Of a stretch of DNA of 43,755 nucleotides, positions 15,666-38,709 are shown piece after piece. The notes beneath the pieces were generated by a model that ran no database searches, was not told the DNA's origin, and saw only the letters and a program-made list of their open reading frames with translations. The stretch is from Candidatus Nanohaloarchaea archaeon. GTDB taxonomy: Archaea; Nanohalarchaeota; Nanosalinia; Nanosalinales; Nanosalinaceae. Each line of letters begins with the position of its first letter. Position 1 is the stretch's first letter. A program made the translations under genes and the position numbers. The stretch is taken from contig JAWOFP010000034.1 of assembly GCA_046497485.1 (NCBI GenBank), positions 1-43,755 on the forward strand, written 5' to 3'.

Positions 15666-17948
15666 TTACCTTGTCTGGACAACACCAAATCCATCTGTTG
15701 AAACAACGCCTTCAGAATTAGATATAACAATGCTTCCTATTAGAGATTCTAGAACATTCTGAGCTTCAAGCTGATTTTCAGTATCTAAAGATTGGAGAAT
15801 CGGATAACCATCCTGTTTAGCTTTTTCATCTGAGGCCTGAACTGTCTTCCATGTATTCTGGAAATCAAGTCCATTCATATTACTTGAAGCTGAGCTCCCA
15901 TTCATTTGGTCAGTTGTTAAAGATGTACCGCCTGCACTACTGCTCTGGCCTGAGGCCTCCGTATCCCAATAAGAACTTCCTACAGTTCCTCCATCTCCAA
16001 CTAAACCTCCTGAATCATAGTTATTTTGGCCATATACCCTCCCATAACTATAGCTGTTTTCCACAGCACCATTATTCAATTGTCTGCCGACTAAACCCCC
16101 TATCCTTCTATCGCTTGACCCATTCACAGCTACTCCGCTATAAGAGTTATTAATTATTCCTCCATCATTTAACCCTATTAAACCTCCAATTTGTTCATCT
16201 GCCTCAACATTTCCTGAAGCCGCAGCAGCATGAACTTCCCCTCTATTCCATCCTATCAAAGTTGCAGAATAATAGCCCCCATTAATATCCGCATTTTTTA
16301 ATTGAATATCTCTAACAATCGAAGAATCAGATGTCTCTGCAAATAAGGCAGAATAACTGCCATCATCTATAGATAAATCCTCAATTGAACGGCCTGCGCC
16401 ATCAAAAACCCCCGAAAACTGGTCGGAATCTGCAATAGGCTGGAAATCAGAACCAGAGCACGAAATTGAGTCCGTTAATTTATAGCTACTTTCAAACAAA
16501 GATTCCTCATTTATAGCTCTAAGATCATCGCAGCTCCCTATTTCATAAGGCACATTTCCTTCTCCGCACCCATTCCATGGCAAGTCTTTATTTGTCTGAT
16601 TCTCCCAAGCTAAACGAGGGTAACAAGAAACAGAATCCCATATCGCCTCAAAATCAAATCCCTGAAGATTTTCTTCAGCAGGCGTTCCAACCATCTCAGA
16701 AGTCATAAGACCTTCACCGCCAGAAGATCCAGACTGACTTGACGAATTCACATCCCAGTATGAATCTGTTGCGGTCCCATCACCCATTAAACCTCCAGAA
16801 TCATAACCATCAGAACCAATAACTTTCCCCGTACTATAACTTCTGTATGCTCCTCCGCCTCTACCCACTAAACCACCAATTCTAGTATTATCTGTACCAT
16901 TAACTTGCACCATGCTGTAAGAATCATAAACTTCTCCATACTGATTAAAACCAGTTAAACCTCCTAGTTGAGAACTACCCGAAACGCTACCCTCTCTAAC
17001 AAAACTCTGCCTGATTTCACCATTATTCCAGCCAACCAAGCCCCCTGTATACAGCCCGCCAGAAACAGTAATATTTTTTAGTCCAATCCGTTCAACGGTA
17101 GAAGACTCTGAAATACCTCCAAATAATCCTGTATCTGAGCCTTCATTTATTGACAAACCCGAAATAATATGGCCGCTACCATTAAAATGGCCTTCAAACC
17201 TGTTATCACTGTCTCCTATCGATTCAAAATCGCCAAAACCACTGCAATTAATGTTATTAGATAACTGATAATTTTCAGATAAGTTATTTCTCATAGATTG
17301 CAAATCACTACAGTTCTGGACTTGAACAAATGTTGATGCTGATTCTACATCCATGCTCCATACTGTTGAGAAAGAACCCCATTTGATTTCAGGCCTTTCT
17401 CCTTCTTCGAATGATACAATTATTTCTGCATCCGCATTCTCTGAATTTTCAATTGATTCCAAGTTACCTGTTAAGGCCTGGACTGGGATATCCTCTATCC
17501 TATTATCGTTTACTGCTTCGACATCATTGATTAGGTCTTCTTCAAATCCTTCTCTCTTAGGATAATCTGTGAATCTCTCTTGAACCAGGTTTCTAACTTC
17601 TTCATTATTTGAGGCCTGTAAAACTTGTTCACCGAACTCTGTCAATTCAAAGTTAAGCGCCGATTTGTAATAGAGTCGGCCATTCCTTGAGTCCTGCCGC
17701 TCTATACTGACGGTCTCGATATCAAACACATATTCGCTTCCGAGTTCGCCTTCAAAAGTATCCGTGTACTCAGTCGAGGCCTGAACAGTTCCAGATTCAT
17801 TATTCTCATTTTGACTTGCTTCAGGTTCAGAAGCTTGATCGCTTGGACCTTCAACTATACTAGAAATATCTGCCTGGAAAAATATGGCAAGGCCTAAGAA
17901 AGCAAAGATCCCTAGAAATGCTAAAGCCGTTTTATGTCCTTCATCCAT
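15666..17948 (-). CDS. membrane-anchored surface protein with two GLUG-repeat beta-helix modules
   Basis: N-terminal TM; duplicated 'I..C.DL..I...Y.L...I.CSG..F.PI...F.G.F.G.G..I..LSI' with GGLVG repeats and SYWD...S.Q..S.GG. Confidence 0.85.
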   Translation of the reverse strand: MDEGHKTALAFLGIFAFLGLAIFFQADISSIVEGPSDQASEPEASQNENNESGTVQASTEYTDTFEGELGSEYVFDIETVSIERQDSRNGRLYYKSALNFELTEFGEQVLQASNNEEVRNLVQERFTDYPKREGFEEDLINDVEAVNDNRIEDIPVQALTGNLESIENSENADAEIIVSFEEGERPEIKWGSFSTVWSMDVESASTFVQVQNCSDLQSMRNNLSENYQLSNNINCSGFGDFESIGDSDNRFEGHFNGSGHIISGLSINEGSDTGLFGGISESSTVERIGLKNITVSGGLYTGGLVGWNNGEIRQSFVREGSVSGSSQLGGLTGFNQYGEVYDSYSMVQVNGTDNTRIGGLVGRGGGAYRSYSTGKVIGSDGYDSGGLMGDGTATDSYWDVNSSSQSGSSGGEGLMTSEMVGTPAEENLQGFDFEAIWDSVSCYPRLAWENQTNKDLPWNGCGEGNVPYEIGSCDDLRAINEESLFESSYKLTDSISCSGSDFQPIADSDQFSGVFDGAGRSIEDLSIDDGSYSALFAETSDSSIVRDIQLKNADINGGYYSATLIGWNRGEVHAAAASGNVEADEQIGGLIGLNDGGIINNSYSGVAVNGSSDRRIGGLVGRQLNNGAVENSYSYGRVYGQNNYDSGGLVGDGGTVGSSYWDTEASGQSSSAGGTSLTTDQMNGSSASSNMNGLDFQNTWKTVQASDEKAKQDGYPILQSLDTENQLEAQNVLESLIGSIVISNSEGVVSTDGFGVVQTR

Positions 17949-18750: not shown

Positions 18751-21700
18751 TTACTCCACAACCTGGCCTGAAACAGTTATCGACGCAGTCACATCGCTTC
18801 CATCACTGTTCGTGACCCTAACCGTTACATCAGATCCTTCCGAACCCTTCCCAACATCATTGATAGGAGTACCAGCAGTAGTGCTTCCCAAAACAGTACC
18901 CGAACCAGCATCATACACCTCTACCTCAAAATTACTGTTCGAGCCGCCGCCCTTCACTTGGACATCCAATCTTTCAATCTCAACACTCTCAGTACTATTA
19001 GTTCCAAACCTATTAACCTCCTCAGTTGAAAGGCCTGAACTCCAAGCAGTATGCCCACTACTATAACTAACCTCTCTAACATTCTTCTCATCAATCTGAC
19101 CATCAACACTTAGGTTTCCAGTCACATCAACATCATAAGGCTGAGAATCACTGCCAAACCGGGCAGTGTAATCACTGTTAGAAACAGAGTCTGCACCGAT
19201 TGCAACTGAGCCTTCACCCCCTGCAGAAGCCCCTGTTTCTGAGTTGTCACTATCTCCACCTATTGCAGTTGAGAAACTGCCTGAAGATTCAGCTCTCCAA
19301 CCAATTGAATTTGAAAAATCTCCTGATGATTTTGTTTCTCTTCCTAGTGCGATGGCAGAAGTCCCTGATGAATCTGCCTTATAACCTAATGCTGTCGCTG
19401 CATATCCTGTGTTATCAGCATCATAGCCTAAGACAGCTGAATAACCGCCTTCTGATGTAGCTTCCTTTCCAATTGCAATGTCTGAATTAGTGTTTGCGTT
19501 GCTACCAGCTTTTGCGTCCTTTCCTATTGCTATATCCTGAAACTCTGACCTGACATCAGCCCCAGTACCAATCACCACTCCACTCGGCATATCAAGGCCT
19601 CCCTCTCCATGAATCGTGGCATTACCCGTAACATTCAAATCTAGTTCCTCACCGTTCAGGTTGCCGAAAGTAGCCTCATAACTATTAGGCGCATTAGCAT
19701 ATTCTCCTATAGCTACCGATCCCTCAGCAGAGGCCTCAGATAGGGCGCCTAGGCTTACAGAGCTCTGACCAGATGAAACTGCGCTACTTCCAAATGCCGA
19801 TGCATCTGTCCCTGCAACAGAGTCAATACCAATTTCTGTACCGCCTGTACCGCCTGAACCTGGAGCATCTGTATTCCCTCCTATAGAAACTCTTGCAGCG
19901 TCAAAGGCCTCAACACCAGATCCAATAGCTATAGAGGGATTACTACTTGTGCCCACAGCCCCAGCACCATTACCAATAGCTATGTCATCGGTATTAGGGC
20001 TTTCAGTGGTGCTTTCTCCAATTTCAATACCATTACTAAATTCTATACTCTGATTCGCAACATTTCCAGCAGCCAAAGTCTCGCTGAGGCCTTCAGGAGC
20101 ACCACCGGTAGAGACACCGGTTAATTCACCGCCAACATTTAGATCACCTTGAACATCAGCATCCTGATGAACAGTAGCATTACCTGTAACATTCAAATCC
20201 AGTTCCTGACCTTGAAGGTTGCCTAAAGTGGCCTCATAACTATTAGGAGCGTTGGCATGGTATCCTATGGCTACGGAGCCTTCCGCGGTTGCATCTGTAT
20301 ATGATCCAAGTGCAGAAGCATAGCTACCTGTCGCCTTGCTATAGTATCCGAATGCGGAAGCTTGACTACTGGTAGCCTGGCTTTCCTCACCGAATGCAGC
20401 TGCGTAGGACGCTACTTTTGAGTTCCTACCGAAAACAGCGCTATAATCTTCAGCTTCAGCAGACCAGCCTACAGCAGTAGAGTAAGAGTTAACATCGGTA
20501 TCTTCACCGATAGCAATTGAAAACGTGTTACCCATAATCTTATCCTCTACCGTGGCGTTCTTACCGATAGCTATAGCGTCAAACTCTGTACCAGTATCTT
20601 CATCACCAATCTGAATATTATCCTCAAACTCAATAGTCTGATTAGCCACATTATTTTCCTCTAAAACCTCTGAAAGGCCTGAAGCAGAACCTCCGCCAGT
20701 ACTGACACCAGTCAATTCTCCATCAACATTGAGATCGCCAGTCACATCGACATCATAGGGAGTGGCATTACTTCCAAACCGGGCGGTGTAATCTTGATCG
20801 GAGATGGCGTCCATTCCAAAGGCGAAGCTTCCTGTTCCTGATGCTGATGCCGTATCTCCTAATGCATATGCATCGTTTCCTGAAGCTGAGGCCTCGTCTC
20901 CAATGGCATATGCGTCAGCGTTGGAGGCGTCTGCGTCTTCACCTAAAGCATACGCATCGCTCCCTGAAGCTGAGGCATTCTTTCCGAGTGCGTAGGCCTG
21001 ATCGGCAGAAGTCTCTGCACCATATCCAAGAGCGAAAGAAAACTGTCCATCTGAGGTTGCAGCGCTGATAGCTACTCCTTCATTTTGCAGGGCTTCAGCA
21101 CCTTCTCCCAGTGCTATAGTGTCTTTATTAGCTGCATATGCGTCTGAACCGATTGCCACCGCTTCATTAGCCGAGGTTTGTGCGCTGTGGCCTATGGCTA
21201 CAGCAGATCCTGCAAAATCAACATTATTATTTACGCTTACGTTTCTGCCAATACCAATAGAATTCTGATGTCCAACATACACATCGTCCCCCATAGCTAT
21301 CGATGAGTCTCCCTGATTATCTATGTTGTCGCCTATTTTGATTTGAGTATTGTCAAAAGATATAGGATTAGTCTGCATATCTAGAGGCCTGTGGGCGAAC
21401 ATGAGACCATTGTCCCTTTCAGCTGAGATCACGTCATATTCGTTTCCATCATTTTCTGTACCTATTACCACCCTATTATCATTAGTATCTCCATCAAACT
21501 GGCTATCATACTCAAGATAAGCACCATAATCATCACCTTCCTGCATCCTATAAGACATCACAGGATCACCCGCTTGAGGCTGTCTTAGTTCAACATTTCC
21601 AACCTCATTCAAATCATTATTACCAAGATCAATCGATTGATTAGCTGTATTATCTACTTCTAAAACGTCAGAAAGGCCTGAAGTTGAGCCATCTATCGAG

Positions 21701-21924
21701 CTACACTGAACTGTTCCATCGTCATTTATTCCAGTTGCCGCCTGATCGCCTGAACACGAACTCAATGGAAATCCTTGGATATTGGAATTCAGAATAACAT
21801 TATCATTGAACTCTGTCGGAGTTTGAAAGATTATATTTTGGTCATGGTTAAATGTTATATTTGCGGCTGCGAGGCCTGAACTTAGTAGAATTATGGCTGT
21901 AAGTGCAGTTAGTTTTAGTTTCAT
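18751..21924 (-). CDS. secreted YadA-head (Hep/Hag) repeat adhesin-like protein, no autotransporter barrel
   Basis: Sec signal; many 14-aa 'A.A.G..A.A.G' repeats in four blocks separated by repeated neck-like segments (G.L.V.G, GLSEVL...N.ANQ). Confidence 0.85.
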   Translation of the reverse strand: MKLKLTALTAIILLSSGLAAANITFNHDQNIIFQTPTEFNDNVILNSNIQGFPLSSCSGDQAATGINDDGTVQCSSIDGSTSGLSDVLEVDNTANQSIDLGNNDLNEVGNVELRQPQAGDPVMSYRMQEGDDYGAYLEYDSQFDGDTNDNRVVIGTENDGNEYDVISAERDNGLMFAHRPLDMQTNPISFDNTQIKIGDNIDNQGDSSIAMGDDVYVGHQNSIGIGRNVSVNNNVDFAGSAVAIGHSAQTSANEAVAIGSDAYAANKDTIALGEGAEALQNEGVAISAATSDGQFSFALGYGAETSADQAYALGKNASASGSDAYALGEDADASNADAYAIGDEASASGNDAYALGDTASASGTGSFAFGMDAISDQDYTARFGSNATPYDVDVTGDLNVDGELTGVSTGGGSASGLSEVLEENNVANQTIEFEDNIQIGDEDTGTEFDAIAIGKNATVEDKIMGNTFSIAIGEDTDVNSYSTAVGWSAEAEDYSAVFGRNSKVASYAAAFGEESQATSSQASAFGYYSKATGSYASALGSYTDATAEGSVAIGYHANAPNSYEATLGNLQGQELDLNVTGNATVHQDADVQGDLNVGGELTGVSTGGAPEGLSETLAAGNVANQSIEFSNGIEIGESTTESPNTDDIAIGNGAGAVGTSSNPSIAIGSGVEAFDAARVSIGGNTDAPGSGGTGGTEIGIDSVAGTDASAFGSSAVSSGQSSVSLGALSEASAEGSVAIGEYANAPNSYEATFGNLNGEELDLNVTGNATIHGEGGLDMPSGVVIGTGADVRSEFQDIAIGKDAKAGSNANTNSDIAIGKEATSEGGYSAVLGYDADNTGYAATALGYKADSSGTSAIALGRETKSSGDFSNSIGWRAESSGSFSTAIGGDSDNSETGASAGGEGSVAIGADSVSNSDYTARFGSDSQPYDVDVTGNLSVDGQIDEKNVREVSYSSGHTAWSSGLSTEEVNRFGTNSTESVEIERLDVQVKGGGSNSNFEVEVYDAGSGTVLGSTTAGTPINDVGKGSEGSDVTVRVTNSDGSDVTASITVSGQVVE
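20820..21030 (-). repeat. tandem 42-nt (14-aa) repeats ASASG.DAYALG
   Basis: About five degenerate copies, also visible in the DNA (cctgaagctgaggc recurs). Confidence 0.8.
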
Positions 21925-21967: not shown

Positions 21968-22735
21968 TTAGTCTTGAAAGCCTGTGAAAGTGAGGCCTGA
22001 TGAAGGGTTTATTGATGGAAGCTGTAGGTTCCCGTCCATTGTATTGTTTTGGCTTGAAACGTTTCCAGGGAGTGTTTGAGGGCCTTGAGCGCAGTTATCT
22101 CCGAAGCATTCTACTTCTACTTGGCTTGTTGTAAGCGTTCCTGTCATGTTGTCTCCTGAACGCGCCACTAATTCATTTGAATCGACCGTGTTTTCCGGGC
22201 AGTTATTTCCTATGCAGAGGCCTTTTGACTCATTCGGTACTAGTGATGCGTTGATTCTGAGTTCAGAGATTTGGCCCCCTCCAACGCTAAGATAGTTGAT
22301 TACTGCTTCTACTAGCGTTACAGGCAGTCTAATTGTGCCTTGAAGTCTTTGGTTTTGGACAGGGCCTCTGTCATGAACGATTGTAATATCCATTTCTGCG
22401 CAGCCGTTGCTTTCGTTCCCTTCCGCAACCAGGTACTGTTCTGTTTCTCCCGGTTCGAGCACCAGATTTGAGCCTTGTGTCACCCCACTTTGACCTCCTA
22501 TATTTACTTCTCTAATCCTTATTTGATCATTTGAAGAGCTTCTGAACAACATTTGAAGCTGATTCTGAGAGTTAAGGCCAGCTTCTTCAACTCTTAGATC
22601 AGGATGGAACACATCAGTCTCAACATCACATGAAGAAGAGTCTGTATAGGAATAAATACCGCCTGTAACTACTCCTAAGGCTATGACTGCCCATCCATAT
22701 GTTATCAGGTACTCGATTCCAGACTGGGCTTTCAT
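21968..22735 (-). CDS. type IV pilin-like protein #2 with C-terminal tail-fibre-like repeats
   Basis: KA|QSGIEYLITYGW; C-terminal CIGNNC...VARSGDNMTGTL and CFGDNC...VSSQNNTMDGNL. Confidence 0.8.
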   Translation of the reverse strand: MKAQSGIEYLITYGWAVIALGVVTGGIYSYTDSSSCDVETDVFHPDLRVEEAGLNSQNQLQMLFRSSSNDQIRIREVNIGGQSGVTQGSNLVLEPGETEQYLVAEGNESNGCAEMDITIVHDRGPVQNQRLQGTIRLPVTLVEAVINYLSVGGGQISELRINASLVPNESKGLCIGNNCPENTVDSNELVARSGDNMTGTLTTSQVEVECFGDNCAQGPQTLPGNVSSQNNTMDGNLQLPSINPSSGLTFTGFQD

Positions 22736-28049: not shown

Positions 28050-28382
28050 CTATCTCCAAGGAATATAGACTATCTCATTTTTCAGTTGGTCTACAGATAT
28101 TGAATTAAGTACCTTAATAACATCTGATGCTGTCCGTTTTTTACTCTGGCGTTTAGTTTGAAGAATAACGCCAACTTGATTCTCCTCACTTAATTTTCTG
28201 AAATCATCATCCCTTGTAAGTATAGAACGGTCGTGCTCTTGAGCATATTCAACCAACTTCATGTCGCCAACACCTTTCATATCAAGATCTTGAATATGTA
28301 CGACATCTATACCATAGGCCTCTAGTCTTTTGACAACAGTCTTTGAGATATGTTCATCCGCTAACAACTTGTGATCAGGCAT
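28050..28382 (-). CDS. DUF5615 PIN-like toxin
   Basis: LLADEHI, G..D....YA and ILTRDDDF motifs. Confidence 0.88.
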   Translation of the reverse strand: MPDHKLLADEHISKTVVKRLEAYGIDVVHIQDLDMKGVGDMKLVEYAQEHDRSILTRDDDFRKLSEENQVGVILQTKRQSKKRTASDVIKVLNSISVDQLKNEIVYIPWR

Positions 28383-28617
28383 TTGCCTCTACCTTGGATC
28401 TGAGCTCCTCACGCACAGTTTTCTTGTTATCATAGAAAAATCTTAATGCATCAAGAACCTGCTGAGGTTCAATACCATATTCTTTAGAAATCTCTTCAAT
28501 ATCCCATCCTAGTTCTTGATAGGCCTCCACTACATCCACAACACGGATCCTAGTGCCTTTAATCCTATGCTTGCCTCCGAAATGTCCTTCAGTGGAAACA
28601 ATATTTTCTTCAGCCAT
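28375..28617 (-). CDS. DUF433 antitoxin
   Basis: GGK.RIKGTRI.V..V and I..EY.I...QV.DAL motifs. Confidence 0.9.
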   Translation of the reverse strand: MAEENIVSTEGHFGGKHRIKGTRIRVVDVVEAYQELGWDIEEISKEYGIEPQQVLDALRFFYDNKKTVREELRSKVEANA

Positions 28618-28671: not shown

Positions 28672-29148
28672 CTAACCTGAGTAATCTACAAACAAGTTAT
28701 CTGGGGCTATTGGGGCTTCGCCGCCGACACTGAAAGGCCCTGTAACAGTTCCTGTGGCGCTTTGGTCATCGAGGCCTTCAATACTGTAAACTAGTTCTAT
28801 ATCAAAACTATTGCAGCCGCTGGATTCCTCAAATCCTGTAACTGTTACAGAAGAAACTCCTCCCGGATCTAGATCGCCATCCGTCACCGCAATAGAGCTG
28901 TTCTCAATTACGACTTCCTGAATCTCTACATTATCAGATCTCCTGTTCTCAAGAGCAATTGCTAACTCACTACCCGTAGTAAGGCCGAAATCCTGGATCT
29001 GGACGCTTTCACCTACAAAACCTGAACTCGACTCAACACAAGCAGTTCCAAAACTAGAGTAGGCGACACCTGAAACAATCGAGACCGTTATCAGCATCCA
29101 GCCATAGGTCGTCAAGTACTCGATCGCAGACTGCCCTTTCCTATTCAT
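28672..29148 (-). CDS. type IV pilin-like protein #3 with a C-terminal FN3 A-strand-like tail
   Basis: MNRKG|QSAIEYLTTYGW; ends APIAPDNLFVDYSG; ATG overlaps the upstream gene's stop. Confidence 0.85.
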   Translation of the reverse strand: MNRKGQSAIEYLTTYGWMLITVSIVSGVAYSSFGTACVESSSGFVGESVQIQDFGLTTGSELAIALENRRSDNVEIQEVVIENSSIAVTDGDLDPGGVSSVTVTGFEESSGCNSFDIELVYSIEGLDDQSATGTVTGPFSVGGEAPIAPDNLFVDYSG

Positions 29149-32030
29149 GGGTTCGAACCTCCAAGGCATTGATCGCCTCCGTCCTGATAACCTGCTTTTT
29201 CTCCCCCAAACCTGTTCCAGGCCTCAACCTGGTAACAATCACTTTGAGAATTATCTTTCAAGCCTGGATTAGCGACTCCAATTTGATAGAGATCATTTTG
29301 ATCAGAGCTTAAATCTTCAATCGGCACCGAAGCCACCTGACTGTAACTAGAGTTAGATGTAGCATTGTAAAGCACCCGGAACTCATCGACATTGTCTCCG
29401 GGATGAGTGAACTCAACTTCTGCTACATGAGTTGAGAAGTCGATAGTATTTGAAACAAACTCGCTGCTGTCTAAAGGTTCAGTTCCTGAAAGATAATAGG
29501 CCTCAGCACTGTAACCTTTGGAGTTCTCATTTACAATCCCGATTTTCGAAAGATTTAGAGAAATAACTTCTCCATCATCAACATTTCCTCTCGTAAACTG
29601 TCGAGTTTCAGTCCCGTTTGAAACATTAAACTCAAATCCCATATCTTTCTCTCCATCAGGATCAGAATCAACCTGGAACGCAATCGCATTCTCCCCATAT
29701 ACTTTCAGGTCTCCAAAGTTTCCAGGATTCAAGTTATCGCCGCTTGATATATCCTGAAGATTGTAATCCACGCCGTTTATATCTGCAACAGTAAAGTTGT
29801 AGAAATTATCGCTGTTATCCCTTTCAGCACCATAGGCCTCCAATGAGACATTCCATCTCTCAACAGAACCATTTCCGAAATCACTGATTCCTGAAGTATC
29901 GACCTGAACAGTATCTCCAGGATTAACATTGTTAGAAGTCTTAAAGTCGATTCCAGTAGATTCTCCAACCGTCACATTAATCGGGCTGTTACCATCAACA
30001 GTTACATTCAAGACAGGATTAGGATCGACAGACTCATCATGAGGCTCCGCCAAAGACACTTGAGGCCTCTCAACCGTTGTAAAGTTCCAGACCTGGCTTT
30101 GAGCACTTTGTCCATTGTAGGTAGAGTTAGAGTACCATTCATACTCTGTGCCTGGATCAAGATTCTGACTTTCTAGGCTTACATTGATCCTTTCATTTGG
30201 AGAGGAAAGATTGCCGCCTAAAGCAAGATCGCTCCCGGACTCATTCACAATATAGAACTCGAGGCCTGTCTCAATACCTGAAGAATTACTTTCCGCACTC
30301 AAATCCCAGTCAAGGCCTACCGGCTCAGAATCATTCTTCGGTAAAGGATTAACCGGAGGATTTAGTGTAGAGACATTGAGGACCTGAGTCGCGTAATCGC
30401 TGCCACTGGAAAAGTTTGCAGTATACTCTCCTGAATCGCCCTCACTCGTAGAAATACTCAAGGTCTCAGTAGTGGCGCTTCCTCCATCCAAAGTCAGAGA
30501 AGTAGAGTTGGAACCGAGACCCGGAATACTTAGATCCAATGTGGTGCTTCCATCAGCGCCCGTATTCTCAATCAAGGCCTCAACCTCAACATCATTGCCC
30601 TCAATCACAGGCTCATTGACATCCTGAACAGTAACAGCAAAGTAAGGCCCTGTTGCAAAACTAACGACGCCTCCAGACTCAGTGAAGAGCTGTGTTGTTG
30701 ACTTAGTTATTTTACTGCCTACCTCTCCATCCTCCGATTTTGCTCTAAATTCGTACTCAGTATCAGGATTCAAACCCTCAACTCTTTCTTTATAAAATCC
30801 GTCTACTGAACGCTTATCAGCATTTACAGTATTCCATGTTGATGCGCCTGTTTCTTTATACTGGAACTGCAGCTGGATTTGATCATTAATATCTCCAGTA
30901 AACTGTGATACATCAGTGATTTCTCCATTAAATCTAAACCAGTCAACACCGATATCTGCTCCAGTAGTTGAAATATTATACCTGCTGGTAGTATCAGAAT
31001 TTACGCTTCCACAGTAATCCTTTGTACAGGCTTCAAACTCGTAATCTGTATCAGGGTTAAGACCTGTGACAACCCGATTGAATGTTTCCGAGCTATCGAT
31101 AGTTCCTGCATCAACCTGCTGCCAACTCCCTCCTGTTTCCCTGTAATTAAACCATGCATTGATCGGGTCCTCTAAATTAGATAGACTTGAAGCTTCCCCT
31201 GTAAAGTTTAACGACCTATCACCTACTCCATCTGTTCCGGTTGTCAAAACACTGTAATCCTGAGTTGTGAAAGACTGCTGTCCTCCAGACTGCGTAAACA
31301 ACTGAGTAGTGTATTTTGTCAAGATGCTGCCTTGATAACCGTCCTCCGACTTAGCCCTGAACTCATACTCTGTATTCGGACTAAGGCCTTCAACACGCTC
31401 TTCAAATATGCCGTCACTATCCTTCAAATCTGCATTGGCAGTAGTCCAACTAGGTGCCCCAGCCTCTCTATACTGAAACTGCAACTGAATCATATCATCT
31501 ATAGTATCCGTAAAACCTGCAACATTCTGAATATCTCCTCTGAATCTCAGCCAATCGACCCCGATATCAACACCCTCAGTTGAAACACTATAAGTACTTG
31601 TTGTATCTGAATCGATCCCGCCTCCGTAGTCTTTAGTAAAAGCCTCAAATTCGTACTCAGTACCAGGATCAAGACCTGTAACTACACGGCTAAAAGCTTC
31701 TGAATCTTCAACTGTTCCAGCATCAACCTGCTGCCAAGAATCACTCGTCCCTGCTTCCCGATACTTAAACCAGGCCTCAACAGGATCATCAACAGAACTT
31801 AGGCCTGTAGTATTCCCTGTGAAATTCAAGGATTTATCGCCCACTCCATCCGTTCCAGTAGTATAAACCTGGTAATCCTGAGTAGTGAACGAAACATTTC
31901 CTCCCGGCTCAGTAAAGACATCTACAGCTAAGCCTCCAGCACTTAACACAACTAAGGTCAGCGATAGAACCAAAGCTCTAAAAACTAAAGTCAAAACATG
32001 CTTCCTTCCACTGTAGAGTTTCTTGAACAC
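29145..32030 (-). CDS. secreted multi-FN3/Ig-domain surface protein
   Basis: Signal peptide; duplicated ~206-aa unit of two FN3-like domains (GL.P.TEYEF); CARDB-like and further Ig-like domains. Confidence 0.85.
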   Translation of the reverse strand: MFKKLYSGRKHVLTLVFRALVLSLTLVVLSAGGLAVDVFTEPGGNVSFTTQDYQVYTTGTDGVGDKSLNFTGNTTGLSSVDDPVEAWFKYREAGTSDSWQQVDAGTVEDSEAFSRVVTGLDPGTEYEFEAFTKDYGGGIDSDTTSTYSVSTEGVDIGVDWLRFRGDIQNVAGFTDTIDDMIQLQFQYREAGAPSWTTANADLKDSDGIFEERVEGLSPNTEYEFRAKSEDGYQGSILTKYTTQLFTQSGGQQSFTTQDYSVLTTGTDGVGDRSLNFTGEASSLSNLEDPINAWFNYRETGGSWQQVDAGTIDSSETFNRVVTGLNPDTDYEFEACTKDYCGSVNSDTTSRYNISTTGADIGVDWFRFNGEITDVSQFTGDINDQIQLQFQYKETGASTWNTVNADKRSVDGFYKERVEGLNPDTEYEFRAKSEDGEVGSKITKSTTQLFTESGGVVSFATGPYFAVTVQDVNEPVIEGNDVEVEALIENTGADGSTTLDLSIPGLGSNSTSLTLDGGSATTETLSISTSEGDSGEYTANFSSGSDYATQVLNVSTLNPPVNPLPKNDSEPVGLDWDLSAESNSSGIETGLEFYIVNESGSDLALGGNLSSPNERINVSLESQNLDPGTEYEWYSNSTYNGQSAQSQVWNFTTVERPQVSLAEPHDESVDPNPVLNVTVDGNSPINVTVGESTGIDFKTSNNVNPGDTVQVDTSGISDFGNGSVERWNVSLEAYGAERDNSDNFYNFTVADINGVDYNLQDISSGDNLNPGNFGDLKVYGENAIAFQVDSDPDGEKDMGFEFNVSNGTETRQFTRGNVDDGEVISLNLSKIGIVNENSKGYSAEAYYLSGTEPLDSSEFVSNTIDFSTHVAEVEFTHPGDNVDEFRVLYNATSNSSYSQVASVPIEDLSSDQNDLYQIGVANPGLKDNSQSDCYQVEAWNRFGGEKAGYQDGGDQCLGGSNP
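30651..31920 (-). repeat. internal tandem duplication (~618-nt unit x2) in the FN3 protein
   Basis: The units SFTTQDY.V.TTGTDGVGD ... EYEFRAKSEDG align along their whole length. Confidence 0.85.
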
Positions 32031-32078
32031 TAAATAGAATATTTTTATCGTTAAATAAAAATGTATTAGCAGAAGTAT

Positions 32079-33362
32079 TTAGTTGAAATCATATGTAGCC
32101 ACATATCCATCGTATGAACTAGTTGCCATTTTAGATCCATCAGGGCTAAATGTTAGGCCATCAGCCCTGCTAGGAGGAGTTATGCTATCAATCTGTGTAG
32201 CCGTGCTAACGTCCCACGGAGCGGACATCTCATACTCATTCATAGTTGCTCCTCCTGCTGAATCAACAAGTATCAGTTTTGAGCCATCTTTGCTGACATG
32301 TATTGAATTGATATCTTCAGTAAGGCCTGAAGTCTTAGATGAAACAAATGAAGCCGTATTAATATCCCAGGGTTCTGATAGCTCATACAGAGAAACCTCA
32401 TCCCCATATCTGGCTAATATCATTTTAGAACCATCTGGGCTAAAATCGATATTGGAATATTCCTTGCTTAATACTTCTTGATATTCATAATTTGCCGTTG
32501 TTAAATCCCAAGGCGTACTTAAACTGTGATACGTAATCTCAGTTTCATCGTCATAATTAATGTAGATTTCATAATAACCAGATCCGTTAGGCATAAACGC
32601 ATAATCTCTACCATTTTCAGTAGTATCTACCCTCTCTCCTGCAGTATTTATATCCCATGGAGTAGAAAGCCTGTACTGATAAATTCCGCTATTTTCGATA
32701 TACATATAACTTCCATTTGAACTAAATTCTATATTGTCCGCATCTATAGAAAGCGTGGTGGAAGAAATTTCATTATAACTCCGTCCTAAATCAATTGAAG
32801 CCGAAGTAGGTAACTCTCCATTGTTAGACTCAAATTCTGAGACAAGAGCCTCTCTACCTTCTTGGCTCGTGGATGCATAAAAGTTATTAAAATCTATAGT
32901 GTCTAAATTTCCTGAAACAGCATTAAACAACTTTATGCCAATACCGCCTCTTGACAATTTTTCATCCAAATTTTCTTCTAAAGTGGTATCCCCCCATATT
33001 ACGGGTTCTGCATAAGCTTCAACACTATATCCAGTATCGGGAGACAATCCTGACGTTAGAGATTGAAGCTGTTCTTCATTAAATGCAATATTTGCCGGAC
33101 CTCTTTGACTTAATGAATTATCTTGAGAATAATTCCAATAAACTAATGCCGCATCGAAATCAGCGTCCAGTTGGTCTACTGTTGCTTGAAAAGTAGCTTC
33201 CGTTTCTTTCACGTTCGTAACTGGATCTGTAGTAACATTGAGATTGTATTCTCCGCTCTGTTGTGGAGAAACCTGTCCTACCGCGTTTGTGATAGCGAAC
33301 CCGATAAGGATTAGAAGGCCTATGCCTGCTGCAATATGATGCTTTTCTGTTTTAAGCTCCAT
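32079..33362 (-). CDS. secreted protein with an N-terminal FN3-like domain and a C-terminal beta-propeller
   Basis: Signal/TM; VTT......A.F.A...GLSPDTGY; repeated F...GS.....Y.LS.PWD..TA blades. Confidence 0.8.
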   Translation of the reverse strand: MELKTEKHHIAAGIGLLILIGFAITNAVGQVSPQQSGEYNLNVTTDPVTNVKETEATFQATVDQLDADFDAALVYWNYSQDNSLSQRGPANIAFNEEQLQSLTSGLSPDTGYSVEAYAEPVIWGDTTLEENLDEKLSRGGIGIKLFNAVSGNLDTIDFNNFYASTSQEGREALVSEFESNNGELPTSASIDLGRSYNEISSTTLSIDADNIEFSSNGSYMYIENSGIYQYRLSTPWDINTAGERVDTTENGRDYAFMPNGSGYYEIYINYDDETEITYHSLSTPWDLTTANYEYQEVLSKEYSNIDFSPDGSKMILARYGDEVSLYELSEPWDINTASFVSSKTSGLTEDINSIHVSKDGSKLILVDSAGGATMNEYEMSAPWDVSTATQIDSITPPSRADGLTFSPDGSKMATSSYDGYVATYDFN

Positions 33363-33461
33363 TGATCATGTTTGTGGATTCTTTGTTTTTATATTTTGGA
33401 ATTTTTGTTGACGGCAATCTTGTTGGGTAAGAGATTTAATTCTTTAGTCAAATTGTTTGTT

Positions 33462-33686
33462 ATGACTAGTATTGTTGAGTCTGAAGGAGTTGTGGGCGGG
33501 AAGCCTAGGGTTGAAGGTACTCGTGTCCAGGTTGATGATGTTGTAGGGGCTTACCGTGAGTGGGATTGGAGTATTGAGAGAATTGCGTCAGAGTATGATT
33601 TGAGTGTTCCACAGGTTTTGGATGCTTTAAAGTATTATTACAATAATATGAGTGATTTTCCAGCAGACTCTGATGTAGAGGCTTGA
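33462..33686 (+). CDS. DUF433 antitoxin
   Basis: GGKPRVEGTRV.V..V and QVLDALKYY; start placed at ATG 33462. Confidence 0.9.
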   Translation: MTSIVESEGVVGGKPRVEGTRVQVDDVVGAYREWDWSIERIASEYDLSVPQVLDALKYYYNNMSDFPADSDVEA

Positions 33687-33691
33687 TTAAA

Positions 33692-34030
33692 ATGGCGTTA
33701 AAGCTTTTAGCAGATGAGAATATTCCTAATGCTGTAGTTGATCAGCTTGATAAAACTAATATCGATGTTATTTCTGTAAATGGGTTGATGAAAGGAGGAA
33801 GCGATGTAGAAGTTTTTGAAAAAGCTGTAGAGGACGAAAGAGCAGTTTTAACAATTGATAAAGATTTTGTGTCAGGTCTTGAAGAAGAATTTAAGCATTA
33901 TGGAATAATCAAGTTCCGAGAAAGATACAGGATAGGGAGAATGGTCAAAGATGTACAGAAGGTAAATTCTACACTGTCCAGCGAAGAATTAAATGGAACT
34001 ATAGTTTACCTTCCTTGGGGCAGCCAATAG
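33692..34030 (+). CDS. DUF5615 PIN-like toxin
   Basis: LLADENIP, G.SD..V...A and LT.DKDF motifs. Confidence 0.88.
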   Translation: MALKLLADENIPNAVVDQLDKTNIDVISVNGLMKGGSDVEVFEKAVEDERAVLTIDKDFVSGLEEEFKHYGIIKFRERYRIGRMVKDVQKVNSTLSSEELNGTIVYLPWGSQ

Positions 34031-35865: not shown

Positions 35866-38709
35866 TCAGCCCTTAATATTCACTACAGGCCTCATTTTAG
35901 CCACCTTTTTACCGATTCCTAGAGAGTCGCTGACTTCTATGACTTCATCCACATCCTTGTAGCTGCCAGGCGCTTCCTCCGCGATTGTTGAGCCTGATGC
36001 TGCTTTAACATGGATACCTTCCCGTTTCAAGTCATTCTGAATATCTTTACCCCAGTAATCCTGCTTGGACTGGCTCCTAGACTTTAACCGGCCGGCACCA
36101 TGAGCAGTTGAACCGAATGAAAGACTCATGCTTTTTTCTCCACCGGAAAGAATATAGCTTGAAGTCCCCATAGTACCAGGAATCAATACAGGTTGGCCAG
36201 ACTCTCTGTAGGTCTCCGGAACTTTTTCATGTCCTGGCGGAAAGGCTCGTGTCGCACCTTTTCTATGAACAATAACATCCTTCTGTTTACCATTTACTTC
36301 GTGAGTTTCCTCTTTCGCAATGTTGTGACAGACATCGTAAACCAGGCCTACATCAGGACCGCCAAATAAAGTTCCAAGTGACTCTCTCACAGCTTGAGTG
36401 ATAGCCTGGCGGTTGCACCATGCAAAGTTTGCCGCTGCATACATCGCCCCTTTGTAATCCTGTGCTTCCTGCGAGTCTATAGGGGCATAGATCAAGTTCT
36501 TTTCCGGAATACTTTCAGCGATATCTGGGTAAGCTTTCTCAAACTCCCTCACATAGTCTGAGCAGGTCTGATGGCCTAAACCTCTAGAACCTGAATGAAT
36601 CATTACCAAGACTTGATCCTCTTCTAGCCCGAAGGCCTCAGCCTTCTCCTCTGAGAACACTTCATCAACTACCTGGACTTCTAGGAAATGGTTTCCGCTG
36701 CCTAAAGATCCTAGTTGTTTTAGGCCTCGAGTCTTAGCTTTCTCCGGCACCTTGTCCGAGTTCCCCGGTAGTCGGCCGTTTTCCTCACAGTGTTCCAAGT
36801 CTTCTTTTTCTGCGTGACCGTTTTCCAGCATCCAATCCATTCCTTTTTCCAGAATTTCCTCTAAATCTTCTTCATCGATATCGATGTACCCTCCTTTACC
36901 GAGCCCACACGGAACCTTCGAATAAAGAATGTTAGCCAATTGCTCCTCCATCCCATCAATGTCACCCGCTGTTAAACCAGTTTTAAGCACTCTAACCCCG
37001 CAATTAGATACGATAAACTGGTTTGCATTAAAATTATGAGCTTCATGCTTTACACCAATATCATACACCGTTTCTACACCATCAGCCTCAATTTCTTTGA
37101 TCGTAGTCTTAACAGCAAGATTATCCTTTACTTCAATGTTTTTTGCAAATTCTTCAAAGCTAGGAAAATCCTTAGGAGGCCTTGGACTAGTTTTCCGACC
37201 GCCATATACACTTCTTTCTATAAACCTGTCATTTATCTCAAATCTCTGTTTTATGTCTTTCGGAGCCATACCTCCTTCATACAGCTGTACAGCTTGTTTT
37301 GAGATATTTTTCCTTCTTTCAATTGCTTTTTTCTTGGTTTTAAGATATTGAACTACTCTCACAGACTTTATCCTTTTTTCTAAATTATAGCGATAGCCTA
37401 TCCGGGTGTAGAAATTAATTAAATTTTCTAAGTCGTTCTTTATACCAAGCCTGTGCCTCATTACCTCTCCATCTTGGTTTTCATGAGTTTCGAATGCCTC
37501 AATATTATTCGTGTTTATATTGAGATCCTGTAAAAGCTGTTTTATGCCGCTCATGAATTGTTTGCCGCTCTCTCCAATATTTTTGGACTTGTTTTGGGAG
37601 ATTTTTGGACAATAAAAGTCTTTTGCATGCTGGGCTTTAGGCGAGCTCATCTCTGCTCCAAAGAACGCTGAGAGATAAAGTGCTTTTTGCCATCCTGTCA
37701 ATCTATGCACGTATTCAGGTACAGTAAATTCTTGAGCTGTTTTCTTTCCTTTAGGCGCACCAAGTTTTACAAGTAGTTTTTGGAATGCATTGGAAGTTGA
37801 TTTTATAGACGTTTCGGTTCTTTCGAAGGGCTCCAGTCTTACTTGATGAGTTCTTTTTCTTTCATAAATTGGAGACGGCTTAAACCCTATTCTGCGGATA
37901 TCTTCTGCTATACTTTCTAAGTCCTCCTTGTCAGCATAAAATGTTGTTTCACTGTGATTATTGAATGATCCATCTCCTGTATGAAATCCTACGAGTTTCA
38001 AGAGCAGATTAAATTCTTCGTCAGTAGATTTCAAAGGAAGTAAGTCTCTTTGTTTCAAAGCCTCAATAAGCTGAGGATTCTCTCCCTCAAAGTCTTTTTC
38101 AGTGAGAAGAGTAAATTCTTCAGGTTCTTCATCCTCTACCCCTTCAAAAGGCTGAACATATACTTGTTCTCCTTTATTTAGGTCTTCCACTTCTTTCATG
38201 CCATTAGGCGTTAGGAACGGATGATCTTTAGTTGCTTTAATAGACTCTCCAGTCTCAGTCTCTACGTTAAAAACTTGTTTATCTTCGTTTTCAGTGAAAA
38301 GAACGATATCTGATTCAATTGCCTTCTCTCCTGCAACTACAGCTTTTTCATCAGCAAAGTTCTTCTTCAATTCAGCAATGGATTTGCTTCTTCCGAATTC
38401 AAGAAGGACGTTCGAATCCCTAGATAAGCAATTAATATCGAAGCCTATGCCTCCAGGGCTTATAAGCCCGTTTTCTGCGTTGAAAGCTGCGACTCCTCCG
38501 ATAGGGAACCCATAACCTTGATGGCCGTCAGGCATCACACAAACATGCTTTTCCACACCTGGCAATTTCGCCATATTACAGGCCTGCTCCAATGTAGCAT
38601 CCTCCTTAATCGTCTCCAATAAATCCTCAGAAGCATAAATTTTAGCCGGAACATTCATTCCCTCTTCCAAAATACTGTAAGTATTCTCCTCAACTTTTTC
38701 TATCTCCAT
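35866..38709 (-). CDS. rtcB: RtcB RNA/tRNA-splicing ligase with intein
   Basis: MPD.H.GYG.PIG, GFDIN|CG, GSLGSGNHFLE, HSGSRG, HN, HRKGATR and HGAGR; 471 aa after intein removal. Confidence 0.97.
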   Translation of the reverse strand: MEIEKVEENTYSILEEGMNVPAKIYASEDLLETIKEDATLEQACNMAKLPGVEKHVCVMPDGHQGYGFPIGGVAAFNAENGLISPGGIGFDINCLSRDSNVLLEFGRSKSIAELKKNFADEKAVVAGEKAIESDIVLFTENEDKQVFNVETETGESIKATKDHPFLTPNGMKEVEDLNKGEQVYVQPFEGVEDEEPEEFTLLTEKDFEGENPQLIEALKQRDLLPLKSTDEEFNLLLKLVGFHTGDGSFNNHSETTFYADKEDLESIAEDIRRIGFKPSPIYERKRTHQVRLEPFERTETSIKSTSNAFQKLLVKLGAPKGKKTAQEFTVPEYVHRLTGWQKALYLSAFFGAEMSSPKAQHAKDFYCPKISQNKSKNIGESGKQFMSGIKQLLQDLNINTNNIEAFETHENQDGEVMRHRLGIKNDLENLINFYTRIGYRYNLEKRIKSVRVVQYLKTKKKAIERRKNISKQAVQLYEGGMAPKDIKQRFEINDRFIERSVYGGRKTSPRPPKDFPSFEEFAKNIEVKDNLAVKTTIKEIEADGVETVYDIGVKHEAHNFNANQFIVSNCGVRVLKTGLTAGDIDGMEEQLANILYSKVPCGLGKGGYIDIDEEDLEEILEKGMDWMLENGHAEKEDLEHCEENGRLPGNSDKVPEKAKTRGLKQLGSLGSGNHFLEVQVVDEVFSEEKAEAFGLEEDQVLVMIHSGSRGLGHQTCSDYVREFEKAYPDIAESIPEKNLIYAPIDSQEAQDYKGAMYAAANFAWCNRQAITQAVRESLGTLFGGPDVGLVYDVCHNIAKEETHEVNGKQKDVIVHRKGATRAFPPGHEKVPETYRESGQPVLIPGTMGTSSYILSGGEKSMSLSFGSTAHGAGRLKSRSQSKQDYWGKDIQNDLKREGIHVKAASGSTIAEEAPGSYKDVDEVIEVSDSLGIGKKVAKMRPVVNIKG
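37003..38430 (-). mobile_element. intein (476 aa) with LAGLIDADG homing endonuclease
   Basis: Starts CLSRDS; block B ATKDHPF; LVGFHTGDGS and LSAFFGAE; ends VYDIGV....NF.AN...VSN|C. Confidence 0.95.

Follow-up and report, generated by a model that had tools for sequence, protein, structure and literature searches.

A predicted split-FN3 clasp joining a secreted surface protein to a tailed type IV pilin in a nanohaloarchaeon

Strand complementation systems and the nanohaloarchaeal locus

Donor-strand complementation is the principle by which chaperone-usher and type V pili are built. Other routes by which proteins become attached to pili are the modular type IV pilins of Streptococcus sanguinis, in which the modules are fused in cis, and the CofJ-CofB and TcpF-TcpB systems, in which secreted proteins dock on type IVb minor pilins via a terminal peptide. 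Attachment to a host is the central step in the life cycle of DPANN symbionts such as Nanohaloarchaeota, and we know of no mechanism by which archaeal type IV pili carry adhesins. With regard to other archaeal structures, the available parts of the literature describe donor-strand complementation in threads, bundling pili, cannulae and Tat-dependent pili. In bacteria, according to the accessible portions of two reports from 2026 (PMC12918778, PMC13711793), β-strand complementation links the PilC/PilY1 adhesins to minor pilins (PilK/PilX), the donor strand coming from the adhesin. An earlier note on the DNA studied here knew of no case linking an adhesin to a type IV pilin; these two reports have overtaken that statement, and in their accessible portions the roles of the partners are opposite to those proposed below. 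A literature search that left supplements aside found no paper describing the nanohaloarchaeal pair of pilin tail and scaffold.

The window, i.e. the whole stretch of DNA analysed, comprises 43,755 nucleotides and comes from a salt-loving nano-archaeon. The features considered are as follows, and the sequences and coordinates given in the earlier note were all found in place.

28672..29148, reverse strand: archaeal type IV pilin gene (P0001), 158 aa (translation)
29134..29148, reverse strand: class III (prepilin-type) signal peptide, pilin residues 1-5 (sequence and alignment with relatives)
28675..28725, reverse strand: donor tail, pilin residues 142-158, GGEAPIAPDNLFVDYSG, proposed to act as FN3 strand A in trans (AF2, complex model, alignment)
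29145..29148, reverse strand: ATGA overlap of scaffold stop codon and pilin start codon (sequence)
29145..32030, reverse strand: scaffold gene (P0002), encoding a secreted multidomain Ig/FN3-like surface protein of 961 aa (translation)
31926..32030, reverse strand: Sec-type signal-peptide-like N-terminus of the scaffold (hydrophobic-run heuristic)
29148..29432, reverse strand: acceptor domain, FN3-like sandwich formed by the C-terminal 95 aa of the scaffold (AF2 secondary structure, profile matches)
29406..29423, reverse strand: strand B, AEVEFT, residues 139-144 of the modelled fragment, predicted to pair with the tail as edge strand (least-error contacts in the complex model)
29235..29237, reverse strand: invariant Cys with which strand F begins, fragment residue 201 (alignments of 16 and 22 domains)
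29166..29168, reverse strand: invariant Cys seven residues before the C-terminus, fragment residue 224 (the same alignments)
32079..33362, reverse strand: upstream co-oriented gene, 427 aa, with an N-terminal hydrophobic segment and beta-propeller-like repeats, 48 nt from the scaffold start

The tailed pilin and the truncated last domain of the scaffold

The listing of open reading frames sets the pilin start at 29169, but an alignment with 36 relatives places the true start at the second Met, at 29148, whose ATG shares the ATGA with the TGA of the scaffold gene. As the pilin start codon thus overlaps the scaffold stop codon, translational coupling of the two genes is plausible, judging from the sequence. 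The pilin reading frame ends in GGEAPIAPDNLFVDYSG, followed by its stop codon at 28672-28674, and its product begins with the leader MNRKG, continuing QSAIEYLTTYGWMLITVSIVSG, with Glu at position +5. In type IV pilins the cleavage site is marked by Gly or Ala at -1 together with Glu at +5, and by this rule the leader is predicted to be cleaved before Q6. The motif QSAIEYL.TYGWM is invariant across all 37 aligned sequences (the pilin and its 36 relatives). The protein thus has the short basic leader, the hydrophobic helix of about 20 residues and the Glu +5 by which archaeal type IV pilins are recognised; behind the helix come an Ig-like sandwich and the C-terminal tail. Searches against Pfam and NCBIfam returned no family for the pilin in either at E <= 1. 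The AF2 model (helix 8-26, strands 40-141, mean pLDDT 69) had as its top Foldseek match in the PDB the archaeal type IV pilus of Pyrobaculum calidifontis (8fk7_A; E 1.7e-4, TM 0.45/0.51), and further pilus subunits of Sulfolobus/Saccharolobus and Pyrobaculum also matched (E 5e-3 to 1.5e-2). The predicted fold, an N-terminal helix with an Ig-like head, resembles that of solved archaeal pilus subunits. The tailed pilin may enter a filament.

When the pilin was modelled alone, its 17-residue tail appeared as coil with a pLDDT of ~47-53. The tail bears the signature P-x-A-P-x-N-L, and FN3 domains start with P.AP.NL. Its P..P..L pattern is kept in pilin relatives, and of the 1494 stop-to-stop reading frames of at least 100 aa in the same genome, 9 have the loose motif P..P..[LIFMVY] within their final 16 aa. 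The length of the chain past the globular core is bimodal among 98 short pilins (-3 to +6 aa in 63, 13 to 27 aa in 35 and none between), and the rarity of the motif together with this all-or-none length indicates that the tail is a discrete conserved module. A profile built from 17 class-I tails, out of 35 tailed pilins, gave no significant match in the PDB (best E 0.043); six of the 16 chains listed for it (1wis, four gp130 entries and 2dm4) are presumably matches at FN3 domain starts, which is suggestive only.

The scaffold reading frame opens with GTG, and its product has KK/RK followed by a hydrophobic run ending in SAGGLAV, a layout consistent with Sec export and with cleavage of the signal peptide. 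The other end of the protein reads SNTIDFSTHVAEVEFTHPGDNVDEFRVLYN, further on CYQVEAWNRFGGEK, and finally CLGGSNP before the stop codon; a scan of the C-terminus found no hydrophobic run and hence no membrane anchor. With the same heuristic, 15 of 16 5'-complete scaffold relatives have a signal-peptide-like N-terminus, and a C-terminal hydrophobic anchor was found in 0 of the 16 5'-complete scaffolds. These proteins look exported yet have no anchor, so that a tether would be needed. Pfam matches of fn3 and related families to the whole scaffold are confined to its N-terminal half. The scaffold may have an adhesive role.

In the AF2 model of the last 230 aa of the scaffold, strands lie at 132-135 (IDFS), 139-144 (AEVEFT), 152-158, 166-172, 183-188, 201-208 and 211-214. 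VIA-align matches over model residues 19 to 137-139 cover a complete Ig-like domain. Since this domain extends to about residue 138, the strand at 132-135 belongs to it and the last domain begins at strand B, right after the previous domain, as the earlier note had proposed. Of the seven strands of a full FN3 sandwich (A, B, C, C', E, F, G), the model of the acceptor domain has the six from B to G, and strand A is missing from the chain. The acceptor is therefore predicted to have no strand A in cis, the free edge of strand B in the monomer being read from the secondary-structure string and the aligned ranges. A profile of 22 acceptor domains matched solved FN3 domains (titin 5e-14, myomesin 6.8e-6, FN3con 5e-5), which align to it from the B strand onward: the matches start at profile positions 3-7, corresponding to chain residues ~20-36 in single-domain entries. 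Pfam assigned no family, PF00041 (fn3) included, to the last 106 aa of the scaffold, and in the last ~100 aa of 12 scaffolds it gave only sub-threshold fn3 hits, in three of them (13.7-16.1 bits against a cut-off of 25). In one relative, L003, a weak fn3 alignment begins at profile position 3 and crosses the preceding strand, and the sequence leaves room for a cis strand A in this subfamily. Two Cys are the only invariant columns in the 16 and in the 22 aligned acceptor domains, and residues 201 and 224 may form a disulfide.

Modelling the pilin together with the scaffold end gave ipSAE values of 0.55, 0.71 and 0.68 over three runs (median 0.68), while three unrelated-partner controls scored 0.00-0.01. 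In the calibration of the tool this mark is reached by 116 out of 157 solved complexes and by 2 out of 215 mismatched pairs, counts that apply only roughly here because the alignments were our own. The runs shared at least 82% of their contacts, with a partner pLDDT of at least 75. On the pilin side the predicted interface consists of residues 141-158 and residue 105 only. Residues 149-154 of the tail pair in antiparallel fashion with residues 139-145 of strand B, and the tail also lies against strands F and G; the contacts with least error are 143:152, 144:151, 142:153 and 141:154, the first of these placing F143 of strand B against L152 of the tail. The segment 223-227 around Cys 224 contacts the tail as well. 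The earlier note had taken the tail for the missing strand A and had suggested co-folding the two ends. The models support this reading: the tail is coil by itself, pairs with strand B in the complex and scores far above the best control (0.01). However, likeness to solved FN3 domains may be enough for a complex predictor to finish a split fold, and the result speaks for compatibility with a whole FN3 domain and not for binding as such. A strand from another polypeptide is thus predicted to fill the vacant strand-A position.

Tails and acceptor domains across relatives

To describe how tails and acceptors are distributed, we used 98 distinct short pilins from 155 fetched loci and the window's own genome, eight of which had too little flanking DNA and were left out of the table. 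A protein ending in a strand-A-less domain lay beside 29 of the 31 tailed pilins (two were without) and beside 1 of the 59 tail-less pilins, this one being a second pilin behind a tailed one (58 were without). The Fisher test gives p = 4e-20, a value that ignores shared ancestry, and the co-occurrence is confounded by inherited synteny. The co-occurrence in homologs that the earlier note had suggested looking for is hence evident across diverged nanohaloarchaeal loci. The tailed exception L100 has a neighbour with a divergent, Cys-less version of the acceptor that was missed by the HMM. Viewed from the acceptor side, there are 31 distinct C-terminal domains that lack strand A: 28 are directly followed by a pilin, in all cases a tailed one, one has a tailed pilin directly upstream, and two have no pilin. 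The strand-A-less domain always lies within 8 residues of the C-terminus, and in 23 of 27 scaffold-then-pilin pairs the pilin motif begins -1 to 26 nt past the scaffold stop. Orphans also exist, namely the tailed pilin of L001 and the acceptor proteins of L050 and (the first one) of L095; in L077 and L078 an ortholog of the window's pilin stands behind another pair, without a scaffold of its own.

Clustering at 50% identity divides the 35 tailed pilins into 20 groups, and a pilin tree made by a quick method, with 42 of its 95 inner branches left open, holds at least three changes of the tail label. Scaffolds differ in architecture, with lengths from about 600 to 1600 aa; apart from the last domain they are not conserved, whereas that domain and the pilin tail are. 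Where the tail is of the P..P..L type, strand B has W or F in 17 of 18 cases; where it is of the P.I..V.Q type, strand B has L or V in all 8. This class-level covariation of tail and strand B falls at the predicted contact positions. The window's genome itself carries three pairs of tailed pilin and acceptor, which differ in both their tails and their strand-B sequences. Long modular pilins number 9 in the window's genome and 58 in the fetched loci; none of the latter runs from its head into a complete domain of the acceptor FN3 type, and the complete FN3-like domain that is fused in cis to the pilins of L111 and L142 is of another kind.

With regard to pilus machinery, the genome encodes T2SSE-type ATPases (best E 7e-41) and T2SSF-type platform proteins (best E 1e-19), and the prepilin peptidase PF01478 was not found in this 97%-complete genome even at E <= 10. 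The tailed pair is not adjacent to assembly genes. On contig C62 a tail-less short pilin stands directly after two T2SSF genes and is a better candidate for the major pilin than the tailed one. The 427-aa gene upstream of the scaffold may be a third member of the operon. A mobile-element block was also considered and rejected: the flanking DUF433/DUF5615 cassettes are just 41% identical at the protein level, and no inverted repeat of at least 20 nt exceeded 80% complementarity.

A possible clasp, its rivals and its known counterparts

On balance we consider it probable that donor-strand complementation in trans tethers the secreted adhesin-like protein to the pilin, and hence to a type IV pilus. 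Sequences, overlapping genes, conservation and co-occurrence are matters of observation, the folds and the interface are predicted, and export, the disulfide, entry into a filament and an adhesive function are inferred. The 961-aa protein would serve as the socket, exported by Sec and without an anchor of its own, its last FN3-type domain, for want of strand A, leaving strand B open along its edge and some of the core exposed. The plug would be the type IV pilin, whose Ig-like head continues into the flexible, strand-A-like tail of 17 residues. Outside the membrane the tail would lay itself antiparallel along strand B, pack on strands F and G and on the disulfide-tied C-terminal segment, and so complete the sandwich by donor-strand complementation in trans. 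The adhesin-like protein would then be held non-covalently but stably by the pilin, whose N-terminal helix would link it to the pilus of this host-dependent nanohaloarchaeon. The architecture would be a single heterotypic clasp rather than a serial polymer.

A broader possibility, which we put forward tentatively and rate below an even chance, is a nanohaloarchaeal plug-and-socket display with several cognate pairs per genome, in which each pilin tail supplies the strand missing from the split FN3 domain of its own separately secreted giant surface protein and the covariation of tail and strand B sets the specificity, in a cohesin-dockerin-like manner. If so, adhesins would be interchangeable on one pilus machine and swapped as two-gene cassettes, and this would be the first mechanism of adhesin attachment described for archaeal type IV pili as well as the first natural split-FN3 clasp. 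The two-gene clasp would name the secreted proteins borne by the pilus, the residues that hold them and a competing peptide, all directly testable, and a naturally split FN3 domain with a 17-residue complementing peptide might be of use as a protein-engineering tag.

The same clasp might instead belong to a pilin that stays membrane-bound and forms a short stalk or a pseudopilus-like anchor, attaching the secreted protein to the cell surface and not to a pilus. We regard this as unlikely: the lack of a detected prepilin peptidase, the distance of the pair from assembly genes and the better major pilin on contig C62 all suit it, but the tailed pilin has Glu +5 and an invariant N-terminal helix in common with tail-less pilins, as subunits of the same fibre would, and its fold resembles solved archaeal pilus subunits. 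Strand insertion could also be real but serve assembly, the complex of scaffold and pilin priming or licensing the pilus and sitting only at its tip. The available text on the bacterial system describes such licensing by β-strand complementation of tip adhesin and minor pilin (PMC12918778), and the coupling of the genes suggests a 1:1 stoichiometry; nevertheless, the same text gives the tip-most bacterial PilK homologs as lacking the Glu +5 that the tailed pilin has, one genome holds three different pairs, and donor and acceptor are reversed relative to bacteria, so that this role seems to us decidedly unlikely.

It is likewise improbable, in our view, that no complementation takes place at all, the last domain being stable with six strands or leaning on the preceding domain, the tail having some other use, for instance in contacts between pilins, in glycosylation or as a signal for processing, and the linkage reflecting operon inheritance. 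Shared ancestry could produce the two-by-two table, orphan tails and acceptors exist, the weak Pfam alignment in L003 enters the preceding strand, and the predictor may simply finish a familiar fold. Against this, the all-or-none tail tracks the acceptor through the changes of label on the pilin tree, conservation is confined to the last domain and the tail, the unrelated partners scored next to nothing, and the covariation lies where contacts were predicted. The complete FN3-like domains fused in cis in L111 and L142 bring to mind a relic, with the tail as the stump of a lost pilin domain, or else a frameshift or assembly error. Such an origin is very improbable, and the frameshift, relic and fusion readings were rejected: the tail stops at the same place in 35 distinct pilins from 20 clusters, the order of the parts (B to G upstream, strand A ending the next gene) is impossible by a simple split, and the in-frame downstream sequence is short and unrelated.

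Compared with the donor-strand systems named at the outset, the proposed trans clasp likewise has an Ig-like domain one strand short that is completed by a strand of another polypeptide. In those systems identical or related subunits are joined head to tail into polymers that are not type IV filaments, whereas the clasp would be heterotypic and place non-pilin cargo on a type IV pilin; its missing strand is the N-terminal A strand of FN3 and its donor a C-terminal tail, with no chaperone or usher evident (none was found among the Pfam matches of the window). As in the modular pilins, a pilin helix and head would display an extra module on the fibre, but there the module is part of the same polypeptide, while here it would be a separate Sec-exported cargo of 600 to 1600 aa attached after export. 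The likeness to CofJ-CofB and TcpF-TcpB is that a short, flexible segment at the end of a chain keeps a separately secreted protein on a pilin; in those cases the peptide comes from the secreted protein, binds a groove of the pilin trimer and completes no split fold.

The PilC/PilY1-PilK/PilX pairs, as far as the accessible portions of the reports describe them, share with our model a large adhesin and a type IV pilin joined by an inserted short terminal β-strand, in a non-covalent join that is argued to bear load in bacteria and would be non-covalent here as well. The polarity differs: the C-terminal peptide of the bacterial adhesin is the donor and the minor pilin the acceptor, while in the nanohaloarchaeal pair the pilin tail would be the donor and the last domain of the adhesin the acceptor, so that a split FN3 fold takes the place of the pilin head. 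The tailed pilin moreover keeps the Glu +5 that PilK homologs lack in the available text (PMC12918778), and no sequence relationship between the two sets of proteins was found with Pfam. The principle of the clasp is hence known from bacteria, and what would be new is its archaeal (DPANN) setting and its reversed polarity; β-strand complementation of adhesin and pilin in both bacteria and archaea would suggest convergence on a way of holding cargo on a fibre under load.

Gene pair and predicted folds

The scaffold and the pilin are encoded by adjacent genes, both read from the translation:

29145-32030, reverse strand: scaffold ORF, 961 aa
28672-29148, reverse strand: pilin ORF, 158 aa, directly after the scaffold ORF

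The pilin ATG shares bases with the scaffold TGA in an ATGA overlap. This start (Met at 29148) follows from alignment with 36 relatives, while mechanical ORF calling puts it at 29169 instead. An earlier note had claimed that the pilin tail donates the missing A-strand of the scaffold's last FN3 domain, and all the sequence strings it cited were found in the window.

The three-gene block 28672-33362 has DUF433 and DUF5615 (PIN-like) pairs of toxin-antitoxin type on both sides, in opposite orientations (28050-28617, reverse strand; 33372-34030, forward strand). The DUF5615 proteins of the two cassettes are 41% identical, and a DNA-level inverted repeat, which was looked for in the cassettes, was not found. 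In the syntenic relative L077, ribosomal-protein genes come directly after the pilin and the cassette is absent. An RtcB tRNA ligase gene with an intein is located at 35866-38709 (reverse strand); genes for archease and a MazF-like toxin lie close by.

The smaller gene encodes an archaeal type IV pilin, whose close relatives all come from Nanohaloarchaeota genomes. The protein matched nothing in Pfam or NCBIfam. Its N-terminus reads MNRKG/QSAIEYLTTYGWMLITV..., with Glu at +5, and this motif is invariant across 37 aligned sequences. The AF2 model (mean pLDDT 69) consists of a helix (residues 8-26) and a β-sandwich (40-141); its top Foldseek match in the PDB is 8fk7_A, an archaeal type IV pilus subunit of Pyrobaculum calidifontis (E 1.7e-4, TM 0.45/0.51), followed by pilus subunits of Sulfolobus/Saccharolobus and P. 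arsenaticum. Residues 142-158 (GGEAPIAPDNLFVDYSG) are modelled as coil with a pLDDT of about 50. When tail length was measured beyond an HMM of the pilin core, 98 distinct short pilins gave a bimodal distribution (-3 to +6 residues in 63, 13 to 27 in 35, none intermediate), and the tail is, as judged by sequence, a discrete module.

Pfam confines the fn3-type domains of the scaffold to its N-terminal half, and the final domain falls below Pfam's fn3 threshold. For the last 230 aa, AF2 (pLDDT 74) predicts a strand at 132-135 (IDFS) and, after it, strands at 139-144 (AEVEFT), 152-158, 166-172, 183-188, 201-208 and 211-214. According to VIA-align matches (Z about 7), a single complete Ig-like domain spans model residues 19 to 137-139; strand 132-135 therefore counts as its last strand, and six strands, without strand A, are predicted for the domain that follows, in agreement with the earlier note. 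A profile of 22 final domains retrieved solved FN3 structures (titin, 5e-14; myomesin, 6.8e-6; FN3con, 5e-5), and these alignments start at the B strand. Every match to the HMM of the strand-A-less domain lies no more than 8 residues from the C-terminus, and the previous domain always ends directly before it, in ...F-[ST]-T. The only invariant columns are two Cys, one where strand F begins and one close to the C-terminus, which may form a disulfide. It counts against a missing strand A that a weak Pfam fn3 alignment in locus L003 runs on over the preceding strand. Among 16 scaffold relatives with complete 5' ends, the N-terminus resembles a signal peptide in 15, and a hydrophobic run at the C-terminus occurs in none. 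The scaffold is presumably a secreted protein without an anchor, and its final domain is predicted to be an FN3 fold that lacks strand A.

Predicted complex of tail and final domain

Scaffold residues 21-230 and pilin residues 30-158 were co-folded with a separate alignment for each chain; the preceding scaffold domain was left in as a possible competitor for the strand-A position. The ipSAE values were 0.55, 0.71 and 0.68 (median 0.68), compared with 0.01 for the best of three controls. In calibration, 116 of 157 solved complexes reached the ipSAE mark, as did 2 of 215 mismatched pairs; these figures are approximate with user-supplied alignments, as used here. The runs shared at least 82% of contacts, and partner pLDDT was at least 75.

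On the pilin, the predicted interface is formed by residues 141-158 and 105; on the scaffold, strand B with the B-C loop (137-150), strands F and G (201-217), residues 223-227 and a small number of others contribute. The scaffold:pilin pairs with the least error (143:152, 144:151, 142:153 and 141:154) run antiparallel, and the predicted register of tail and strand B matches that of strands A and B in FN3 domains. Such a predictor may accept a familiar fold in split form through its likeness to solved structures, and the model should therefore be read as compatibility with a complete FN3 domain and not as binding.

Co-occurrence of tail and acceptor domain

Comparative genomics provides the strongest evidence for the proposed interaction. 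Around pilin relatives, 76 genome and 79 metagenome loci were fetched, and their pilins, together with those of the window's own genome, were sorted by tail and neighbour, with 8 more excluded for insufficient flanking DNA.

Pilins by presence of the tail and by neighbouring protein
Tailed pilin: neighbour ends in strand-A-less domain, 29; no such neighbour, 2
Tail-less pilin: neighbour ends in strand-A-less domain, 1; no such neighbour, 58

Tail and truncated domain accordingly go together in homologs (29/31 tailed versus 1/59 tail-less pilins; Fisher p = 4e-20, uncorrected for relatedness). The sole tail-less pilin with an acceptor neighbour (L107) is a second pilin behind a tailed one. As for the tailed exceptions, L100 has a neighbouring copy of the domain after all, divergent and Cys-less, and the L001 pilin (6001-6480) lies about 8 kb from the orphan acceptor protein L050 (ORF 1-984), on opposite strands of one Nanohalobium contig; these two may be a separated pair.

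Among 31 distinct acceptor proteins, a tailed pilin is found just downstream of 28, just upstream of one and beside neither end of two, and most of the downstream pilins overlap the scaffold stop codon or nearly abut it. At 50% identity the tailed pilins fall into 20 clusters; the scaffolds range from about 600 to 1600 aa and, last domains excepted, vary in architecture; and the tail label forces at least three changes on a quick, poorly resolved pilin tree. In 17 of 18 pairs with a P..P..L tail, strand B has W or F, and in 8 of 8 with a P.I..V.Q tail it has L or V at the same position; this position (F143) contacts tail Leu152 in the complex model. The covariation is a weak point, because the two tail kinds are probably only two lineages.

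The window's own genome holds three such pairs, the one in the window (contig C51) and two others:

C66, 2552-7783, forward strand: acceptor protein and tailed pilin
C52, 13334-16954 of the reverse strand: gene order reversed, pilin upstream of scaffold, with a longer tail of 27 residues

Homologous pairs are also present in the Nanohalobium-type loci L002 and L003. In L111 (503-1895) and L142 (2358-3177), the pilin head continues in cis through a linker into a complete FN3-like domain, the covalent counterpart of the split arrangement.

Pilus genes, alternative readings and known systems

The window's own assembly (0.97 Mb, 66 contigs, estimated completeness 97%) encodes T2SSE ATPases and T2SSF platform proteins, together with 14 ORFs that have the pilin N-terminus, five short (three of them tailed) and nine long and modular. 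On contig C62 (38736-40798), a short pilin without a tail lies directly behind two T2SSF-type platform genes and is a candidate major pilin of the fibre. A second pilin locus in the window (14461-14931, 14991-15581 and 15666-17948, all reverse strand) codes for another short pilin that has no tail, and ahead of it lie a 196-aa ORF and the gene of a 760-aa protein carrying a GLUG motif. At 18751-21924 and 21968-22735 (reverse strand), a 255-aa modular pilin, whose Cys-rich C-terminal module resembles that of the proteins P0036-P0041, lies directly upstream of a 1057-aa YadA-head-repeat protein, another pilin-adhesin adjacency of a kind unlike the scaffold-pilin pair.

On the most likely reading, the pilin tail would complete the scaffold's FN3 sandwich in trans. 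An adhesin-like protein exported on its own would thereby be tethered to the pilin and, once the pilin enters the filament, to the pilus. The complex model and the co-occurrence lend computational support to the central claim of the earlier note, that the tail supplies the missing A-strand. Alternatively, the pair might form a membrane-stalk anchor or an assembly-licensing tip complex; tail and acceptor domain might be co-inherited without binding, or the arrangement might be a relic. Attachment to a pilus is opposed by the search for a PF01478 prepilin peptidase, which found none in this genome even at E <= 10. Two further observations count against the interaction itself. Orphans occur on both sides, as a tailed pilin alone or an acceptor protein alone, and in a close relative (L077, 4246-5465; L078, 3223-4442) two tailed pilins come after a single acceptor protein; the rear one is the ortholog (78% identity) of the window pilin and lacks a scaffold of its own.

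Completion of the scaffold by the pilin tail would matter greatly to pilus biology and to the question of how DPANN archaea attach to their hosts, and the articles covered by our literature search contained no description of the nanohaloarchaeal pair. The earlier note knew of no strand link between an adhesin and a type IV pilin, a statement overtaken by two 2026 papers on bacteria (PMC12918778, PMC13711793). They report that the C-terminal peptide of PilC/PilY1 adhesins complements a β-sheet of PilK/PilX minor pilins. There the adhesin is donor and the minor pilin acceptor, whereas here the pilin would be donor and the cargo acceptor; in addition, the acceptor here is a predicted split FN3 domain, the pilin keeps Glu +5, and the pair is archaeal instead of bacterial. 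Donor-strand complementation is also reported from archaeal threads, bundling pili, cannulae and Tat-dependent pili, which polymerise like subunits and are not type IV filaments.
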